From the NCBI GenBank assembly GCA_045631485.1, contig JAZQUU010000034.1, positions 25,457 to 89,456 of the forward strand: a stretch of DNA of 64,000 nucleotides, read 5' to 3'. Position 1 is the first letter of the stretch. Each line of letters opens with the position of its first letter. The translations under genes and the position numbers were made by a program. Of the stretch, positions 41,443 through 49,259 are shown in pieces. The notes under the pieces are model-generated. The model was not told the origin of the DNA and did not search any database. It worked only from the letters and a program-made list of their open reading frames with translations. This stretch comes from Clostridia bacterium. Lineage in GTDB: Bacteria; Bacillota; Clostridia; UMGS1840.

Positions 41443-42822
41443 ATGTTAAAATCCAAAACCGCTTTCGTGGTGTACGGCGTTCATAAAGACGGGTTATTAG
41501 ACCCCGACGGCAACCTGTTCATTGACGAAAGCATAATCGAAAATTCCAAAAAAGCGCTGAAAGCAGAAGGCGTTGAGTTGGTAGAAGAAAAATTGATTAT
41601 CGCTACCAAGGAAGAAGCAAAAAATGTGCTGTTACCCTTAGCAAAAGACGATTCTATTGACACCTTAGTATTATTCTCCGGTACCTGGGTTTGGGCAGCG
41701 CATATGATTGGTGCAATTCGTGAATTTGCAAAAACCGGCAAAGGTATTGTCATTTGGACTCACGACGGCTCTCAGGGCTGGCGTCCCGTTGGCGGCTTGG
41801 TATTAAGTGCAGCATTAAACGAAGTTGGTATCAAACACAAATTTGTTTACGGCGGTGTTTCCGACCCCTCCAATGTGAAAAGAGTGGCAAACTTCTGCAA
41901 AGCATCCGCTTTAAGAAAGAGCATGGAATTAACCACCTTAAGAGCATTTGGCGGACGTGGTATGGGTCAGACCTGCGGCGTGGCAGATCCTTCTCAGTGG
42001 ATGAAAACCTTCGGTATCGATATCGACACCCGTGACACCATGGAACTGGTGGAAACTGCAAAAGCAATTCCCCAGGCAGAAGTGGACAAAGTTTGTGACT
42101 GGATTGATAATAACTTCACCTGCAAGGTAGAACGTAACGACGGTAACATCCGTTCCATCCGTTTATATCTGGCATTAAAAACCTTAAAAGAAAAAGAAGG
42201 TTTTGATTATTACACCATTCAGTCCTTCCCCGGTATGGGTGACTACTATGCTGCAACCTGTTTTGCACAGAGTATGATGTTAAATGACGGTGTTCCCACC
42301 GCAACCTTATCCGACTTTAACACCTGCTTAACCTCCATTATGATTATGGGATTATCCAAAGACCCCATCTATTATGGTGACTTACAGCACGTAAATAAAG
42401 CAACCAACGAAATCAAAATCATCGGTGACGGTGCGGTTCCCCCTTGTCTGGCAAATGAAGACGGCGTAAGCCTGGCAGGTCACGGTATTCCCACCGAAGG
42501 GGAAGCAGGCGGCTTATCCATCGACTTGGTATGTAAGAGCGGTAAAGGCGTTTTAGCTCGTATCAGCAGAGTGGACGGAAAATTCAGAATCTGCGTGGCT
42601 CGTTGCGAAGTGTTCCAGCCTAAAAAAGAAGAACTGGAAGCTCGTCGTCACGAATGCGGTATTCCTTTCTGGCCTCACGCTTTTGTGAAAGTGGACGGTG
42701 ATATCGGTGCACTGGTGGAAAGCTGGAACAACGAATACGGCTGCTTGGGCTACGGCGAAGATTTGTATGACCAGATTGTGGAATTTGGGAACATTATGGG
42801 CATCGAAGTCCTTGCATTCTAA
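41443..42822 (+). CDS. L-fucose/L-arabinose isomerase-family sugar isomerase (substrate unknown)
   Basis: 459 aa. The size, the N-terminal Rossmann-like region and its context with an FGGY kinase match my recollection of the family. No residue-level confirmation is possible here. Confidence 0.6.
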   Translation: MLKSKTAFVVYGVHKDGLLDPDGNLFIDESIIENSKKALKAEGVELVEEKLIIATKEEAKNVLLPLAKDDSIDTLVLFSGTWVWAAHMIGAIREFAKTGKGIVIWTHDGSQGWRPVGGLVLSAALNEVGIKHKFVYGGVSDPSNVKRVANFCKASALRKSMELTTLRAFGGRGMGQTCGVADPSQWMKTFGIDIDTRDTMELVETAKAIPQAEVDKVCDWIDNNFTCKVERNDGNIRSIRLYLALKTLKEKEGFDYYTIQSFPGMGDYYAATCFAQSMMLNDGVPTATLSDFNTCLTSIMIMGLSKDPIYYGDLQHVNKATNEIKIIGDGAVPPCLANEDGVSLAGHGIPTEGEAGGLSIDLVCKSGKGVLARISRVDGKFRICVARCEVFQPKKEELEARRHECGIPFWPHAFVKVDGDIGALVESWNNEYGCLGYGEDLYDQIVEFGNIMGIEVLAF

Positions 42823-42848
42823 AAATGGAATAAAAGAACATAGAACGC

Positions 42849-42886
42849 AAAAGGCATGGGATTTTTTCTCATGTCTTTTGTTTTTA
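42849..42886 (+). terminator. Intrinsic terminator of the sugar operon
   Basis: AAAAGGCATGGGA-TTTTT-TCTCATGTCTTTT is a 13-bp stem with two G:U pairs, followed by GTTTTT. Confidence 0.7.
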
Positions 42887-42938
42887 AGGTGAAATTGTTT
42901 TGGCAAACAATTTGATTAAAATGCCTTTTGCTATGAAC

Positions 42939-42997
42939 CAATCAAGCCTCTCGGCGTACCGATGTACGCCTTCGGGTAACCCCTGCGGGCTTGATTG
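42939..42997 (+). repeat. Copy 3 of the structured intergenic repeat (opposite genomic orientation; again 3' of the upstream ORF)
   Basis: The plus-strand reading is CAAUCAAGCC-UCUC-GGCGUAC-CGAU-GUACGCC-UUCG-GGUAACCCCUGCG-GGCUUGAUUG, with a 10-bp perfect outer stem. It is embedded in a ~100-bp segment (42902..43001) that is the inverted counterpart of 44565..44669. Confidence 0.7.
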
Positions 42998-43287
42998 ATT
43001 CATTCTATGTCCTTTTCTTTCCATTTTTCCAAAAATATCAACATACGGAGTATAGAACTTCTTCGCTTCTGCATCATTTTTCCTCTCATTTTGGTTCTAT
43101 ATAACTGAATATCAAAAGATAAAAAAAGGTATGGAATTTATTTTCATACCTTTTGTTTTGCCTTTTGCGGTCTATGTCCTTTTCTTTTCATTTTACAATG
43201 AGGTAAAAATGCACATAGGCAAATAACTTCACATCTAATGCAGGCTCTGCCTGCCACTGCAATTCTTCATTATTCATTTTTCATTAT

Positions 43288-43460
43288 CTACCTCTCCCTT
43301 TGGGAGAGCGGTCAGCAAAGCTGACTGAGAGGGCTTGTAGGGGACGGCGTCCTCGACGTCCCGTTTTTGTTTCTCTGCTTGACACCATTTCAAAAGAACG
43401 GGAGGGGATGGAACCCCTCCCCTACATCCGGTATCTCGGATATATAGGTAGCTACGCAGG
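43288..43460. repeat. GC-rich string of perfect hairpins (MITE-like insert) in an otherwise AT-rich spacer
   Basis: The hairpins are CTCTCCC-TTT-GGGAGAG, GTCAGC-AAA-GCTGAC, GGGACG..CGTCCC and GGGAGGGG-ATGGAA-CCCCTCCC. The insert is flanked by TCATTTTTCATTAT (43274..43287) and TCAATTTTTCATTTTA (43461..43476). The first two hairpins plus TGAGAGGG match the module at the ends of the DUF559 cassette. Confidence 0.55.
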
Positions 43461-43530
43461 TCAATTTTTCATTTTATGCGGGTTATTTCCGACTTTTTTC
43501 CGATGATGAATAACTTTGCTAAAAAACAAG

Positions 43531-43565
43531 AAAAAGCTCTCTGAATGGCTTCAGAGAGCTTTTTT
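43531..43565. terminator. Bidirectional intrinsic terminator downstream of the ZIP transporter gene
   Basis: AGCTCTCTGAA-TGGC-TTCAGAGAGCT is a perfect 11-bp stem, flanked by AAAAA on the left and TTTTT on the right. Confidence 0.8.
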
Positions 43566-43577
43566 GCATTCCGTGCT

Positions 43578-44330
43578 TTATCCGAGGAGAGTGTCGGTAA
43601 TTAACATTACGCAAAAACCGATTAAAAACGAATAGGTTGCGCCCCGTTCGTGTCCGTGGGCGTGGGTTTCGGGAATCATTTCGTCACTGATGACATAGAG
43701 CATGACCCCACCTGCAAAGGCAAGCATAAAAGGTAACACCGCCGTGGAAATTGCCACGGAAAAATATCCGAGCAATGTCCCCACAACTTCCACTAACCCT
43801 GTGGCAAGTGCAATGAGTAAGGTTCTTCCCTTGGAAACGCCCGCCGCCAGCATGGGAGCGATAATTATCATCCCCTCGGGGATGTTTTGCAGCGCTATCC
43901 CGCCTGCAATCACCAATGCTTGCTCGGTGTTGTCGGTACCAAAGCCAACTCCTGCCGCAAGGCCTTCGGGCAGATTATGAATGGCAATTGCCATCACAAA
44001 CAACAAAACTTTGTTTAAATCGGTTCCGTGATGGGATTCCATCTCCGCACCTGCAAGTTTATGTAGATGAGGCACCAGCTTATCCAAAATATTTAAAAAC
44101 ACGGCACCGGCAAATACGCCTGCCACGGTGATGAAAATCCCGTACTGACCGCCATATTCCAATGAGGGCATAATGAGACCGATTACCGCCGCACAAAACA
44201 TCACCCCTGCCGCAAAGGACAGCACGATATCCGAAAATTTATGAGTTTGTTTTTTGAATAAAAAGCCGAGCAAAGCCCCAATCATGGTGGCACCGCCAAC
44301 GCCTAATGCCGTTAATAATACCATAGTCAT
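43578..44330 (-). CDS. ZIP family divalent-metal (zinc) transporter, ZupT-like
   Basis: 250 aa and 8 TM segments, with the ZIP signature motifs AIAIHNLPEGLAAG and ALQNIPEGMIIIAPM. Confidence 0.85.
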   Translation of the reverse strand: MTMVLLTALGVGGATMIGALLGFLFKKQTHKFSDIVLSFAAGVMFCAAVIGLIMPSLEYGGQYGIFITVAGVFAGAVFLNILDKLVPHLHKLAGAEMESHHGTDLNKVLLFVMAIAIHNLPEGLAAGVGFGTDNTEQALVIAGGIALQNIPEGMIIIAPMLAAGVSKGRTLLIALATGLVEVVGTLLGYFSVAISTAVLPFMLAFAGGVMLYVISDEMIPETHAHGHERGATYSFLIGFCVMLITDTLLG

Positions 44331-47361: not shown

Positions 47362-47496
47362 CTCTTATATACAAGTTTAGTGTCTCCAAACACGGGAGTT
47401 TTTAAAACAGAACATGCTAAAATACTTTTGCATTTTTATTATATCATACCAAAAAAAATTTTACAATATTTTTTTAGAAAAATTTCAATCAAAAAA

Positions 47497-47944
47497 GGCT
47501 CCCTTGTGTAAAGGGAGCTGTCAGCAACGCTGACTGAGGGATTGTTGCACCACCTCATCAATATGAGTGCAAACCCCCAAGAAATTGCTTTGTATATCAA
47601 GATTTGAAAACCTCAATACTTTGATGCCATATTGTTCCAAGTAAATCGTTCTTTCAGCATCATTTTTTAATCCTATGTCTTCATAATGAGAAGAACCATC
47701 AAGTTCAACCACAAGATTTGCTTTGGCACAGTAAAAATCCGCAATATATTTCCCCAATATTTTTTGGCGAATAAAACGTACGGGATAGTGTTTTAGAAAA
47801 TCATACCACAAATGTCGTTCTTCTTTGGTCATATTGTTACGAAGAGCTTTTGCAAAAGGAACCATATTTTTATTATGTTTTCTATCCATTTACAATCCCT
47901 CAGTCTTGGCTTCGCCAATCCAGCTCCCTTTACACAAGGGAGCC
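47497..47944 (-). mobile_element. DUF559 gene cassette bounded by inverted hairpin repeats (candidate small selfish/mobile element)
   Basis: Left end 47497..47520 is GGCTCCCTTGTGTAAAGGGAGCTG. Right end 47921..47944 is CAGCTCCCTTTACACAAGGGAGCC, its exact reverse complement (24/24). The inner arms TCAGCAACGCTGACTGAGGGATTG (47521..47544) and CAATCCCTCAGTC (47893..47905) are also inverted. Confidence 0.45.
47521..47889 (-). CDS. DUF559 (Vsr/restriction-endonuclease-like fold) domain protein
   Basis: 122 aa. ..MTKEERHLWYDFLKHYPVRFIRQKILGKYIADFYCAKANLVVELDGSSHYED..DAERTIYLEQYGIKVLRFSN.. is the typical DUF559 pattern. The last six codons (SLSQRC) and the stop lie inside the left terminal repeat. 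Confidence 0.8.
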   Translation of the reverse strand: MDRKHNKNMVPFAKALRNNMTKEERHLWYDFLKHYPVRFIRQKILGKYIADFYCAKANLVVELDGSSHYEDIGLKNDAERTIYLEQYGIKVLRFSNLDIQSNFLGVCTHIDEVVQQSLSQRC

Positions 47945-48020
47945 GCTTTTTACTTACCAAAATTATAACACAAAGATTTTTATTTTACAATATTTTTTCT
48001 AAAAAATCCTGTCAAAAAAC

Positions 48021-48050
48021 ACAAAAAAAGACGATGCATAACGCATCGCC
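48021..48050 (-). terminator. Intrinsic terminator of the efp / Cys-Asp-repeat gene operon
   Basis: The minus-strand RNA is GGCGAUGC-GUUAU-GCAUCGUC followed by UUUUUUUGU. The G:U pair forms only in the minus-strand transcript. Confidence 0.75.
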
Positions 48051-48070
48051 TTTTTCTTGCTAAAAATGAA

Positions 48071-48505
48071 TTAGTCTTCGCAATCGCAGTCACAATCGCA
48101 ACCGCAGCCGCAACCTTCGGGCAGATCCAATTCAATCTGCTGACGGCAGGAAGGGCAGTAAATATCTTCGGTTTCCAAGGTTTCACCGTCAACATAAACT
48201 TCTTCGCCACAGTTGGGGCAAGTGATTTCATAAACATCTTCATCGTCACAATCGCAATCGCAGTCACAATCGTCTTCATCATCTTCAAAAACGATGTCTT
48301 CCACGTCTGCCAAATCGTCGGATAAATTGTCCATTTCTTCCTGAACCATTGCCAAATCGTCATCGATTTCCACAATGTATTCATTCATTTCTGCCAGAAC
48401 ATCTAAGATACCTGCGATGATTCTGCCTTCGTTTGTGGATTCATCCACTTTTAAGCCTTCTGCCAGGCCTTTTAAGTAAGCGATTTTTTCGCCGATATTT
48501 TCCAT
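48071..48505 (-). CDS. Acidic zinc-ribbon protein with Cys-Asp dipeptide repeats (CD1247 N-terminal-domain-like family)
   Basis: 144 aa. It has an N-terminal helical region, then DDCDCDCDCDDED, then the zinc ribbon CPNCG..(22 aa)..CPSC, and the C-terminal tail GCGCGCDCDCDCED. It lies immediately downstream of efp. Confidence 0.6.
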   Translation of the reverse strand: MENIGEKIAYLKGLAEGLKVDESTNEGRIIAGILDVLAEMNEYIVEIDDDLAMVQEEMDNLSDDLADVEDIVFEDDEDDCDCDCDCDDEDVYEITCPNCGEEVYVDGETLETEDIYCPSCRQQIELDLPEGCGCGCDCDCDCED

Positions 48506-48540
48506 AGGAATTCTCCTTTCAAATAAGGAAGCAAAAGAGA

Positions 48541-49098
48541 CTACGCTCTTTCCATGTAGCTTCCGTCTCTGGTGTCGATTCTTAAAACGTCACCAATGTT
48601 GATAAACAGGGGCACGTTGATGGTTGCACCGGTTTCTAAGGTTGCGGGTTTGGTTGCACCCTGAGCGGTGTTACCTGCCAAGCCGGGTTCGGTTTCGGTA
48701 ACTTCCAGTTCCACAAAGTTGGGGGGTTCGATACCGAATACGTTGCCGTTGTGAGATAAGATTTTCACGCAATCATTTTCTTTTACGAATTTTAATGCGT
48801 CACCCACCTGGCTTGCATTGATGGGAATCATGTCGAAGGTTTCCTGGTCCATAAAGTAATACAGGTCACCATCGTTGTAAGAATACTGCATATCTTTTCT
48901 TTCGATATGAGCTTTCGGGAATTTATCGGTGGGTCTGTAAGTTTTTTCAACTACAGAACCGGTGATAATATTTTTGATTTTGGTTCTAACGAACGCCGCA
49001 CCTTTCCCGGGTTTTACATGCTGAAATTCAACAACCTGAAAAATATTTCCGTCTTCTTCAAAGGTAACGCCGTTTCTGAAATCGCCAGCTCCTACCAT
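48541..49098 (-). CDS. efp: Translation elongation factor P
   Basis: [47 protein letters not shown]... is canonical EF-P. ATG 49098 is preceded by AGAGGAGAA. The track's 49164 start is an extension. Confidence 0.95.
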
Positions 49099-49168
49099 AG
49101 TAAATTCTCCTCTCAATCGGAAAAAATTCCGTTTATAGTTCTTAATTATATTACAATATAACAAGTAT

Positions 49169-49197
49169 ATTATAGCAAAGGTCTTTCAAAATTGCAA
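49169..49197 (-). promoter_or_regulatory. Sigma-A-type promoter for efp
   Basis: The minus strand reads TTGCAA (49197..49192), a 17-nt spacer, then TATAAT (49174..49169). Confidence 0.6.
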
Positions 49198-49259
49198 GAT
49201 ATTTTTTCAATATTTTTGCGCTTTTGGATTTTTTTAGTATTTTTAGAAGTTTTTCTTGC

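Follow-up and report, generated by a model that had tools for sequence, protein, structure and literature searches.

A DUF559 nuclease gene nested in a composite palindromic repeat family of gut Clostridia

In a 64,000-nt stretch of DNA from a Clostridia bacterium (hereafter the window, in whose positions all coordinates are given), a 448-bp cassette at 47497-47944 holds a DUF559 open reading frame inside a composite palindromic repeat. Gut Clostridia contain a large family of such composite repeats, and the cassette is one of the members that bear the gene. By analogy with the relation between REP sequences and RAYT proteins, the DUF559 protein could be the cognate nuclease of the repeat modules, a reading whose probability we would put just short of an even chance.

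Repeats of the BoxC/PIT/TMECO type have been known since the 1990s, and DUF559 is among the commonest uncharacterised small nuclease families. The nesting of DUF559 genes in repeats across phyla suggests one direct hypothesis for both, testable in E. coli, which has ycjD and 23 TMECOs.

Architecture of the cassette

The first-pass annotation of the window had described the DUF559 gene as enclosed by an exact 24-nt inverted repeat, and this was borne out: GGCTCCCTTGTGTAAAGGGAGCTG lies at 47497-47520 on the plus strand and its exact reverse complement at 47921-47944. No further copy of the 24-mer was found in the window at up to 3 mismatches, nor did any arise in 100 shuffles. Both copies fold into hairpins of 8-9 bp each. 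The second, inner inverted layer of that description was also present, as GACTGAGGGATTGT (47532-47545) pairs with ACAATCCCTCAGTC (47892-47905) over 14 nt with 100% complementarity. The second hairpins at the two ends, GTCAGCAACGCTGAC (47520-47534) and TTGGCTTCGCCAA (47906-47918), had been said to differ; the two small hairpins are indeed unrelated.

The gene is on the minus strand. Upstream of it lies the 5'-end module, whose hairpin A (47921..47944, minus strand) is here of the T-type; this is atypical, as the family normally has a G-type 5' end, and the window was classed T/T. On the plus strand this hairpin is followed by GCTTTTT and thus resembles an outward-facing terminator. Next come hairpin B (47906..47918, minus strand; TTGGCGAAGCCAA on the gene strand, from folding) and the third block (47892..47905, minus strand; GACTGAGGGATTGT on the gene strand), which stands in the same register in homologues. 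Within this block, GAGGGA precedes the ATG by 6 nt and probably serves as the ribosome-binding site of DUF559. The ORF itself (47521..47889, minus strand) encodes 122 aa, assigned to a Vsr-fold PD-(D/E)XK-type nuclease from Pfam, PDB, fold and conservation data.

The 3'-end module overlaps the end of the ORF. Its third block, TGAGGGATTGT (47535..47545, plus strand), was recognised by inner-repeat pairing and mirror comparison: it mirrors the purine arm AAAGGGAGC, pairs with 47892-47905 as part of the inner inverted repeat and, read on the gene strand, encodes ..QQSLS... Hairpin B' (47520..47534, minus strand; GTCAGCGTTGCTGAC on the gene strand), detected by folding, occupies the family's hypervariable position and holds the TGA stop of DUF559. 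Hairpin A (47497..47520, minus strand), T-type with the stem GCTCCCTT/AAGGGAGC, was recovered by the repeat search, the terminator scan (47518-47498) and folding; since TTTTTT follows it on the gene strand, it is terminator-like. Both cassette ends scored in the terminator scan as intrinsic terminators facing outwards.

The last codons of the ORF had been placed inside the left repeat. About seven codons (QSLSQRC, rather than the six originally counted) and the stop do lie in the inner repeat and the GTCAGC hairpin, but the 24-mer is excluded, as it begins one base past the stop. That the 24-nt repeat is perfect is peculiar to the window's lineage and is explained by both ends being T-type; usual elements carry two slightly different end types.

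A solo module, previously placed at 43291..43333, is present at 43291..43336 (plus strand) as a sequence variant, CTCTCCC-TTT-GGGAGAG / GTCAGCAAAGCTGAC / TGAGAGGG, that belongs to a variant subfamily and keeps the mirror relation. A separate GTAG hairpin occurs at 43340, outside the solo module.

Promoters and locus context

An AT-rich direct repeat flanks the cassette, as first described: 47458-47496 and 47982-48019 align locally over 40 columns with a score of 44 (maximum of 500 shuffles, 33). The -35/-10-like hexamers noted in both copies were also recovered; on the minus strand each copy reads TTGTAA-N17-TATAAT and has a TG extension. The promoter repeats of the sister lineage L001 are similar over ~70 nt, a stretch that touches both cassette ends.

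By alignment and promoter scan, the upstream promoter copy extends over 47945..48019 (minus strand; -35 TTGTAA at 47990-47985, -10 TATAAT at 47967-47962, TG extension) and would drive DUF559. The downstream copy (47422..47496, minus strand; -35 at 47466-47461, -10 at 47443-47438) abuts the 3' module and presumably drives the flavodiiron, rubredoxin and rubrerythrin genes. The DUF559 ORF is placed between two copies of one promoter, and with a promoter on each side, both DUF559 and the downstream flavodiiron operon would be transcribed. The upstream limit of the locus is the terminator of the efp-DUF7560 operon (48023..48057, minus strand; terminator scan).

An empty site, suggested as a check in the first-pass annotation, was found in a relative (L214) that keeps the efp-DUF7560-flavodiiron (FDP) synteny with neither the gene nor a module between DUF7560 and FDP; more distant relatives likewise have neither. 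When the window was compared with L001, a tract of ~1.6 kb (efp-DUF7560-cassette) was 94-100% identical, against 82-88% on both sides, and the downstream edge of the tract coincided, in this single comparison, with the 3' end of the cassette. Exact-protein look-ups with the window's DUF559 and with the identical DUF7560 returned nothing on record.

The module family in gut Clostridia

The module is ~48 nt long and consists of a polypyrimidine/polypurine hairpin A, a hypervariable hairpin B and a purine block that mirrors the purine arm. Its hosts are gut Clostridia, namely Oscillospiraceae, Acutalibacteraceae and relatives. In 771 kb around 130 exact hairpin matches we counted 79 solo modules, 40 inverted doublets (imperfect palindromes of ~125-135 bp, centred on a ~25-nt A-rich spacer) and 6 gene-bearing elements. 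A set of 68 viral contigs yielded 76 solos, 14 doublets and no genes, and matches in phage records were limited to modules (~50 nt), with no cassette among them. Rfam 15 covariance models, run at permissive thresholds on the window region and six loci, gave no family covering the modules.

Although ~95% of hairpin modules are without DUF559, the gene is strongly associated with them. Among 80 metagenome loci whose DUF559 is 60-79% identical to that of the window, 69 had a hairpin on both sides within 200 nt, compared with 13 of 430 background windows (3%), and 56 of the 80 matched a strict pattern in exact register. The first-pass annotation had reasoned that hairpins abundant genome-wide with no enrichment next to DUF559 would speak against a link; the abundance was found, but so was the enrichment.

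The proposal that gene and structured ends form one unit is supported by the constancy of architecture and register around DUF559 homologues that are 60-98% identical and lie in unrelated contexts; elsewhere, for example, the same ends have 2-phosphosulfolactate phosphatase and Cu-Zn SOD genes as neighbours. In this fixed register the 5' third block contains the ribosome-binding site, and the 3' module the last codons and the stop. The ends read AAAG[C/G]CTCCC, and no GTAG/CGTC tetranucleotide is found at the repeat end.

The inner side of solo T-type modules faced a gene stop in 26 cases and a start in 10, which ruled out a role of solo modules as 5' leaders of downstream genes. A candidate case of doublet/filled allelism at one site was rejected as well, the 3' flank shared by several loci being another ~130-nt repeat and not a sign of orthology.

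Covariation within the module

Hairpin B was distinct in 63 of 67 and in 98 of 104 modules, yet every one folds. Hairpin A and the third block, on the other hand, covary at the two positions left free by the search pattern, which fixed 5/8 stem positions: an outer C..G pair goes with G in 66/66 modules and an outer G..C pair with T in 104/104, while T-A goes with A in 138 and C-G with G in 28, with 5 exceptions. The covariation preserves G.G-C, A.A-T and T.A-T (and T.C-G) triplets, and the variant is present in both module types. Overall, 1361/1368 positions were triplet-compatible in register, compared with 25-55% when the third block was slid. The order of the parts, CCTCCCTT / AAGGGAGG / GGAGGGAT (pyrimidine arm, purine arm and mirror third block), is that of the purine motif. 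Judged from its sequence, the module has the layout predicted for an intrastrand triplex of the class II purine motif, except that its second loop is structured.

In non-redundant paired elements of the G/T type, the pairing between the 5' and 3' inner repeats comprised 39 Watson-Crick, 18 G-U and 0 A-C pairs, a weak result because the 3' end is fixed by locus selection. Matching 5' and 3' inner motifs were also seen, by eye, at three divergent loci (L187, L195 and L210). A strand test at the RNA level gave G-U counts of 17 vs 4 and 4 vs 22 between strands; it was left unused, since the excess tracks module orientation rather than gene sense and is due mostly to flanking bases that are conserved.

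The DUF559 protein

Pfam DUF559 (PF04480) matched the cassette protein with E = 1.8e-28 and 99 bits over profile positions 4-108 of 109. This was its sole Pfam match, none being obtained with HUH/Y1 transposases; the NCBIfam YcjD model scored 65 bits, under its equivalog cut-off. A PDB sequence search returned 3HRL (E = 6e-12). With an AF2 model (pLDDT 71.6), the top PDB matches in Foldseek were 3HRL, the DUF559 protein NGO0050 (E = 1e-4), and 3R3P, the catalytic domain of the homing endonuclease I-Bth0305I (E = 1e-3; TM 0.73), while the structural match to Vsr itself was weak (E = 1.5). The residues D51, E62, D64, G65 and H68 were invariant in 35 and in 53 sequences. The protein is a bare Vsr-fold nuclease, with a catalytic core of ~120 aa and no strand-transfer domain.

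The gene is functional and under purifying selection, as 97 of 103 copies were intact and the median dN/dS was 0.09. The subfamily has more than 8000 close homologues. In metagenome contigs one locus per species dominates: 35 of 40 copies share their flanks and the others differ on one side only. No additional DUF559 paralogues were found besides the index copies in the ~1.1 Mb of loci analysed.

DUF559 genes and repeats in other phyla

Significant inverted repeats of the polyPy/polyPu hairpin type also flank DUF559 genes, 31-43% identical to that of the window, in four other organisms: Deinococcus (56 nt, score 47; shuffle maximum 11), S. meliloti (114 nt, score 102; shuffle maximum 14), Azospirillum (24 nt) and Pseudanabaena (40 nt). 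At four further DUF559 genes such a hairpin was present on one side. The repeat arm of S. meliloti is dispersed over 24 places in that replicon.

In E. coli, the DUF559 gene ycjD abuts a TMECO-type repeat that occurs at a median of 16 places per genome. Across a spread sample of E. coli, genomes with the ycjD-adjacent copy had the repeat at 12-26 places and those without it at 1-13 (median 3), a comparison confounded by phylogroup. The sequence types ST69 and ST182 have regained ycjD. A 2015 survey of BoxC/PIT/TMECO-type repeats (PMC4666352) did not find a mobility or maintenance factor near them, and "DUF559 domain-containing protein" was reported to be 14-fold enriched among genes overlapped by long inverted repeats (PMC9881135). 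We found no open-access paper linking DUF559, COG2852 or ycjD to BoxC, triplex or RIME repeats.

Possible role of DUF559

If DUF559 is the cognate enzyme of the modules, one would expect a Vsr-fold nickase, encoded by a selected gene present in one copy, that recognises modules in their folded state, whether in single-stranded or in extruded DNA. As the host's replication and repair machinery dealt with the nicks, modules would be copied to, or maintained at, other places; the gene itself, flanked by two substrates of its product, would persist there and only rarely change locus, by recombination. Vsr-fold nucleases nick but cannot join strands, so that nicking alone does not account for the proposed copying step. 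Against the reading also stands the persistence of repeats without the gene, both in viral contigs and in E. coli, where TMECO-type repeats are present in all 5426 genomes and ycjD in 3378.

The nesting of DUF559 genes in similar repeats across the four other phyla sampled suggests that DUF559 may be the partner enzyme of orphan repeats. In its widest form, which we lean against while taking it seriously, DUF559/YcjD proteins across bacteria would be the cognate nucleases of polypyrimidine/polypurine triplex-capable hairpin repeats, namely BoxC/PIT/TMECO in E. coli, RIME-like repeats in rhizobia and the Clostridia modules.

It is somewhat unlikely that the modules are instead general repeats with terminator, insulator or mRNA-stabilising functions, dispersed by some unrelated agent, with DUF559 an ordinary Vsr-like repair nuclease that does not act on them, the bracketing perhaps serving to insulate a toxic nuclease. 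Caulobacter VsrA, a DUF559 protein, does behave in a Vsr-like manner and is linked to a cytosine methyltransferase (PMC12907096), and solo T-type modules favour positions after gene stops, as described above. Part of the conservation could be regulatory, a point against the cognate-nuclease reading, because the ends look like ordinary terminators, both hairpins facing outwards, and because the third block doubles as a ribosome-binding site by supplying the Shine-Dalgarno sequence. However, a regulatory role leaves unexplained why, in five phyla, one protein family nests in polyPy/polyPu repeats that are alike in architecture but unrelated in sequence, and accounts neither for the mirror covariation of hairpin A and third block nor for the fusion of the ORF to its end module in a fixed register among proteins down to 60% identity. 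Moreover, earlier studies, summarised in PMC4666352, detected neither promoter nor terminator activity in TMECO/PIT elements.

Unlikely, too, is a free-standing homing endonuclease that cuts the doublet centre or a specific intergenic site and whose gene is copied in by double-strand-break repair via the module arms, the repeats being landing pads spread by something else. The ORF does occupy the position of the doublets' A-rich spacer, the nearest folds are NGO0050 and I-Bth0305I, and the gene is present or absent at a conserved site (as L214 illustrates). As co-conversion would have it, the downstream edge of the high-identity tract coincides with the 3' end of the cassette, albeit in a single comparison, and in E. 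coli ycjD took the place of eefRABCD at one site at least twice (PMC12817139). However, a homing enzyme that was active would be expected to have filled many of its targets, of which a genome contains dozens, whereas in the metagenome contigs each species shows a single filled locus; the ratio of doublets to filled copies is ~7:1 in genomes, and in viral contigs it is 14:0. Because hairpin B is hypervariable, the homology available in each arm is only ~24 + 11 nt, and no site was found at which one genome has a doublet where another has a filled copy.

An IS-like transposon, with the modules as terminal inverted repeats, DUF559 as transposase and the doublets as MITEs, is very improbable, even though long (gene-bearing) and short forms have terminal inverted repeats in common and many homologues lie on very short contigs. 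Target-site duplications were absent in 67 of 71 elements, and in the other four the flanking direct repeats measure 49-74 nt, which has no parallel among IS; in metagenome contigs a single locus dominates in each species, the ends are asymmetric (G-type vs T-type) and solo ends are the commonest form. We know of no PD-(D/E)XK protein that transposes DNA alone (Tn7 TnsA needs TnsB). The first-pass annotation had offered a small selfish cassette or a gene captured inside a palindromic repeat family; the latter is accurate, while a self-transposing cassette is not supported, given the single locus seen per species, the lack of target-site duplications in most elements and the absence of a strand-transfer domain.

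An invertible switch, in which the 24-nt inverted repeats would flip the DUF559 segment between two promoters, is hardly tenable despite the perfect repeats, the promoter on each side and the enrichment of DUF559 among predicted inversion targets (PMC9881135), given that the segment has the same orientation in all six related contigs, that no recombinase gene is found among its neighbours in the window and those contigs, that both promoters face the same way and that typical family members have no perfect repeats.

Comparison with known systems

The proposed partnership of DUF559 and modules resembles the REP/REPIN-RAYT system (Nunvar 2010; Bertels & Rainey 2011, PMC3116915), in which a single-copy nuclease-type gene, as DUF559 may also be, lies between inverted dispersed palindromes. 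In both, repeats are found singly or paired as inverted doublets around a short spacer and far outnumber the gene, and differing gene lineages go with differing repeat sequences. The enzyme, however, is a Vsr-fold DUF559 here and a HUH/Y1 (IS200-like) transposase there; the GTAG/CGTC tag is absent, the unit is a polyPy/polyPu hairpin plus variable hairpin plus mirror block and not a simple REP, and the DUF559 ORF overlaps its repeat. If correct, the proposal would set a second partnership beside REP-RAYT, this one relying on a Vsr-fold nickase and on non-B DNA, and with it a second case, with other chemistry, of a resident gene farming non-coding repeats; it would also account for the origin and homogeneity of orphan repeats.

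With BoxC/PIT/TMECO elements (Hoyne & Maher 2000; Holder 2015, PMC4666352) the modules share the succession of pyrimidine arm, purine arm and mirror purine block, as well as an intergenic, dispersed and highly conserved distribution with no mobility gene assigned, and E. coli's own DUF559 gene abuts one such element. They differ in the second loop, which is a hypervariable hairpin of 13-25 nt instead of 3 nt (published limits are 1-6 nt; PMC4666352), in having stems of 8 nt that contain A/T, and in pairing into inverted doublets; the triplex is here a prediction from sequence.

Pairs of MITEs and IS (Correia/NEMIS, ERIC-type 127-bp palindromes) also comprise intergenic imperfect palindromes of ~125-135 bp with terminator- or promoter-like signals and a longer form that has the same ends and contains an ORF, but here there is neither target-site duplication nor transposase fold, the long form keeps mostly to a single locus per species in metagenome contigs and solo ends are commonest. 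I-Bth0305I, the EDxHD homing endonucleases and Vsr (3R3P, 1CW0; PMC3239194) have in common with DUF559 the catalytic fold, an acidic/His motif and nicking-type chemistries; unlike I-Bth0305I, the DUF559 protein has no NUMOD/HTH DNA-binding domain and its gene lies outside any intron or intein. The ends of IS200/IS605 elements, finally, are similar: subterminal hairpins take the place of simple inverted repeats, the 5' one standing close to the ribosome-binding site and the one at the end being a terminator, and target sites are not duplicated. Yet TnpA/TnpB are absent from the cassette and its hairpins lie on opposite strands at the two ends.

For annotation, the nesting of the gene in the repeat explains the odd C-terminal tails of DUF559 proteins, the spurious small ORFs called in the repeats and the flagging of DUF559 as a target of 'programmed inversions'.

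Cassette structure in the window

As read directly from the region, the 24-mer GGCTCCCTTGTGTAAAGGGAGCTG lies at 47497-47520 and its exact reverse complement at 47921-47944; no further copy occurred in the 64 kb at up to 3 mismatches, nor did any in shuffled sequences. Inside these lies a perfect inner inverted repeat of 14 nt (47532-47545 and 47892-47905), and folding placed two small hairpins, unrelated to each other, between the two layers (47520-47534 and 47906-47918). The enclosed 122-codon ORF (47521-47889, minus strand) is a clear DUF559 member (Pfam E = 1.8e-28; PDB 3HRL, E = 6e-12). This family is described as having a Vsr-like fold (PMC3424549, PMC1189080), and one member, Caulobacter VsrA, has been tied to cytosine methylation (PMC12907096).

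Along the gene strand, the cassette reads hairpin A, hairpin B, CTGAGGGATTGTAA, the ORF from its ATG, CAACAATCCCTCAG, hairpin B' (containing the TGA), hairpin A', TTTTTT. Both A hairpins received outward-facing terminator scores in a terminator scan. The AT-rich direct repeat around the cassette was significant (score 44 vs a shuffle maximum of 33), and on the gene strand each copy carries a TG-extended TTGTAA-N17-TATAAT. The neighboring gene, encoded after efp (48071-48505, minus strand), specifies a DUF7560/CD1247 N-terminal-like protein of 144 aa whose low-complexity Cys-Asp tail, CDCDCDCD (encoded by repeated TGC GAT), lies beside zinc-ribbon motifs.

The gene-bearing unit and its modules elsewhere

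Close homologues of the window protein number over 8000, and many of them come from contigs of 0.5-1 kb. Six contigs carry a 98% identical DUF559 at the same efp/DUF7560-flavodiiron locus. A 74% identical one lies between unrelated genes, yet its ends and their register are unchanged, with compensatory changes in hairpin A. A metagenome scan yielded 80 loci with DUF559 proteins 60-79% identical to that of the window. Both end units (modules) were in register at 56 of the 80 by a strict pattern, and a lenient test found the hairpin within 200 nt on each side at 69/80 (35/46 non-redundant), against 13/430 background windows from the same loci. Matching inner repeats were kept in divergent members (GGGGTTG/CAACCCC, GGGACTGT/ACAGTCCC).

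The modules greatly outnumber the gene. An exact search with the 21-nt hairpin, one genome per species, matched at least 120 stretches; among the matches listed, almost all were gut Clostridia MAGs, and DUF559 adjoined only 10 of 130 hairpin matches. A generic pattern divided the ends into a G-type (GCCTCCCTTGTGTAAAGGGAGGTG - hairpin B - cGGAGGGATTGT), usually the 5' end, and a T-type (in reverse complement, ACAATCCCTCAG - hairpin B' - CAGCTCCCTTTACACAAGGGAGCC), usually the 3' end. The window cassette and its relatives L001-L006 have T/T ends, which is why the perfect 24-mer occurs in the window and not in typical members. In 771 kb around the genome matches we counted 79 solo modules, 40 inverted doublets (~125-135 bp) and 6 gene-bearing elements; the corresponding numbers in 68 viral contigs were 76, 14 and 0.

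Hairpin B differs in sequence in 63/67 G-type and 98/104 T-type modules, and folds in all. Near-invariant are hairpin A and the adjacent block, which mirrors the purine arm of hairpin A (AAGGGAGG vs GGAGGGAT). Across 171 non-redundant modules, the two free stem positions of hairpin A covary with the block. An outer C..G pair went with block G in 66/66 cases and G..C with block T in 104/104; at the other position T-A went with A (138) and C-G with G (28), with 5 exceptions. The A-to-G variant is present in both end types, and a solo variant module in the window (43291-43336; stem CTCTCCC/GGGAGAG, block GAGAGGG) keeps the mirror.

One of the triplets G.G-C, A.A-T, T.A-T or T.C-G fits at 1361/1368 positions in mirror register, compared with 25-55% in slid registers. 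The domain order of the modules matches the definition of a class II purine-motif intrastrand triplex given for the E. coli BoxC/TMECO repeats (PMC4666352), except that the module has a structured hairpin where BoxC/TMECO has a short second loop. We infer that the modules may form such triplexes. No Rfam family matched them.

Gene integrity and insertion status

DUF559 copies were intact in 97 of 103 cases (53 distinct nucleotide sequences), with D51, E62, D64, G65 and H68 conserved and a median dN/dS of 0.09. In the most fully sampled species, both flanks are common to 35 of 40 copies; the other copies differ on one side only, a pattern that recombination or an assembly artefact across repeats would produce, and transposition would not. 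Judged from these sequences, the gene appears to be functional and single-locus. The AF2 model of the window protein (pLDDT 71.6) was nearest to the DUF559 protein NGO0050 (3HRL), with the homing endonuclease I-Bth0305I (catalytic domain) second; the match to Vsr itself was weak.

The first-pass annotation took the cassette to be inserted between the efp and flavodiiron operons. This is borne out by a relative (DUF7560 protein 81% identical) that retains efp-DUF7560-flavodiiron with a 354-nt spacer containing neither DUF559 nor module; more distant relatives have plain terminators downstream of DUF7560. Comparison of the window with its sister lineage L001 gives 94-100% identity across the efp-DUF7560-cassette tract (cassette, 98-99%) and 82-88% on both sides of it. 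This putative recent recombination tract (window 47600-49200, L001 3700-5400) has its downstream edge at the cassette 3' end.

Long direct repeats (49-74 nt) abut both ends of 4 of 71 elements, three of them gene-bearing: the window lineage (window/L001, ~74 nt), L137 2946-3392 (59 nt), L118 1978-2423 (64 nt) and the doublet L084 6577-6735 (49 nt). They resemble target duplications of exceptional length, or else tandem duplications of local origin. A fifth element, in L135, has a significant flank repeat that does not abut its ends, and the other 66 of the 71 have none.

DUF559 and repeats outside Clostridia

In E. coli, the DUF559 gene ycjD terminates with a CCCTCTCCC hairpin; beyond it come a second, partial copy of the ycjD 3' end and then CCCTCGCCCCTCTGGGGAGAGGGTTAGGGTGAGGGG, which fits the TMECO consensus. 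In K-12 (1351100-1351830, L216), that partial duplicate spans ~60 nt between ycjD and the TMECO repeat, and a 16-bp-stem hairpin upstream includes the Shine-Dalgarno sequence (CACCTCATTCTGACAA...TTGTCAGAATGAGGTG). Among 5426 E. coli genomes, ycjD was found in 3378, and the ycjD-adjacent repeat had a median of 16 places per genome. In a spread sample, genomes with the ycjD-adjacent repeat had 12-26 places and genomes lacking it 1-13 (median 3), a difference that is only suggestive because ycjD tracks phylogroups A/B1/C (PMC12817139).

Eight DUF559 genes from other taxa, 31-43% identical to the window protein, were also inspected. Flanking inverted repeats occurred in Deinococcus (56 nt; score 47 vs shuffle maximum 11), S. 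meliloti (114 nt; 102 vs 14), Azospirillum (24 nt; 24 vs 10) and Pseudanabaena (40 nt; 40 vs 10), and a one-sided hairpin of this type in Sphingomonas, Neisseria, Photobacterium and Synechocystis. Copies of the S. meliloti arm are scattered over 24 places in the same replicon; that of Deinococcus turns up again next to DUF559 in two further species.

We found no open-access paper on a DUF559-repeat link. A survey of inverted-repeat-flanked genes recorded a 14-fold enrichment of DUF559 without comment (PMC9881135), and the TMECO survey reported no mobility genes near the repeats and left ycjD unmentioned (PMC4666352).

Relation of the gene to the modules

The data best fit a relation like that of REP repeats to their RAYT partner gene: a selected, single-locus nuclease gene is enclosed by a dispersed repeat in inverted orientation, this repeat is found mainly as singlets and doublets, and the same protein family pairs with different repeat sequences in different phyla. 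The action of DUF559 on the repeats and the way in which new copies arise belong to the putative part of this reading.

Homing of the DUF559 gene into doublets is attractive, given the protein fold, the central ORF and the high-identity tract shared with L001, but empty doublets are in excess and a single locus is filled. If the flanks were purely regulatory, the terminator and ribosome-binding features would be accounted for, and the cross-phylum recurrence and the mirror covariation would be left unexplained. An IS-like transposon is unlikely, as is an inversion switch.

Other repeats near the modules

Directly after the solo module of the window comes a GTAG-tagged REP-like hairpin, GTAGGGGACGGCGTCCTCGACGTCCC (43340-43365), and then a second hairpin, GGGGAGGGGATGGAACCCCTCCCC (~43400-43425). 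The spacer between the convergent genes (42822-43578) is thus pieced together from three or more types of repeat.

Among the comparison loci, a conserved unit of ~130 nt (..TTGTCAATTTTCCTGACAAGCACTGCATTTGTGGACACAAATGCAAAATACGGCATACCTCTTTCGAGATATGCCGTATTTTTGAAAACTGTCCTTTAGAG..; two hairpins and a T run) lies just 3' of the T-type module in L051, L080, L086, L096, L108 and L185, and partly in L055, L106 and L081. It trails gene-bearing elements as well as doublets, in contexts that otherwise differ, and could represent either a small RNA or a further repeat. A promoter-like unit (TTGCATCTAAACCTTATGCCTCGCAATATT..GTCGAA..GTCGAAA) is found repeatedly, ahead of 5' modules and also behind 3' modules (L007, L010, L042, L097, L110, L118, L134-L136). 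Elements alternate with it in arrays resembling BIME mosaics; L010 reads doublet, unit, full cassette.

Short tandem half-hairpin arrays (..GGCACAAGGGAGGCTGGCACAAGGGAGG.. and CTCAAGGGAGCCTCAAGGGAGCC..) follow some modules (L188, L191, L192, where they lie in the cassette 3' flank, and L105), which suggests slippage or repeated nick-repair at hairpin A. Finally, a terminator-like hairpin, ATTACCTTCCGGGAGGTAAAAAAG, lies immediately 5' of modules at the unrelated loci L043, L081, L108 and L024.
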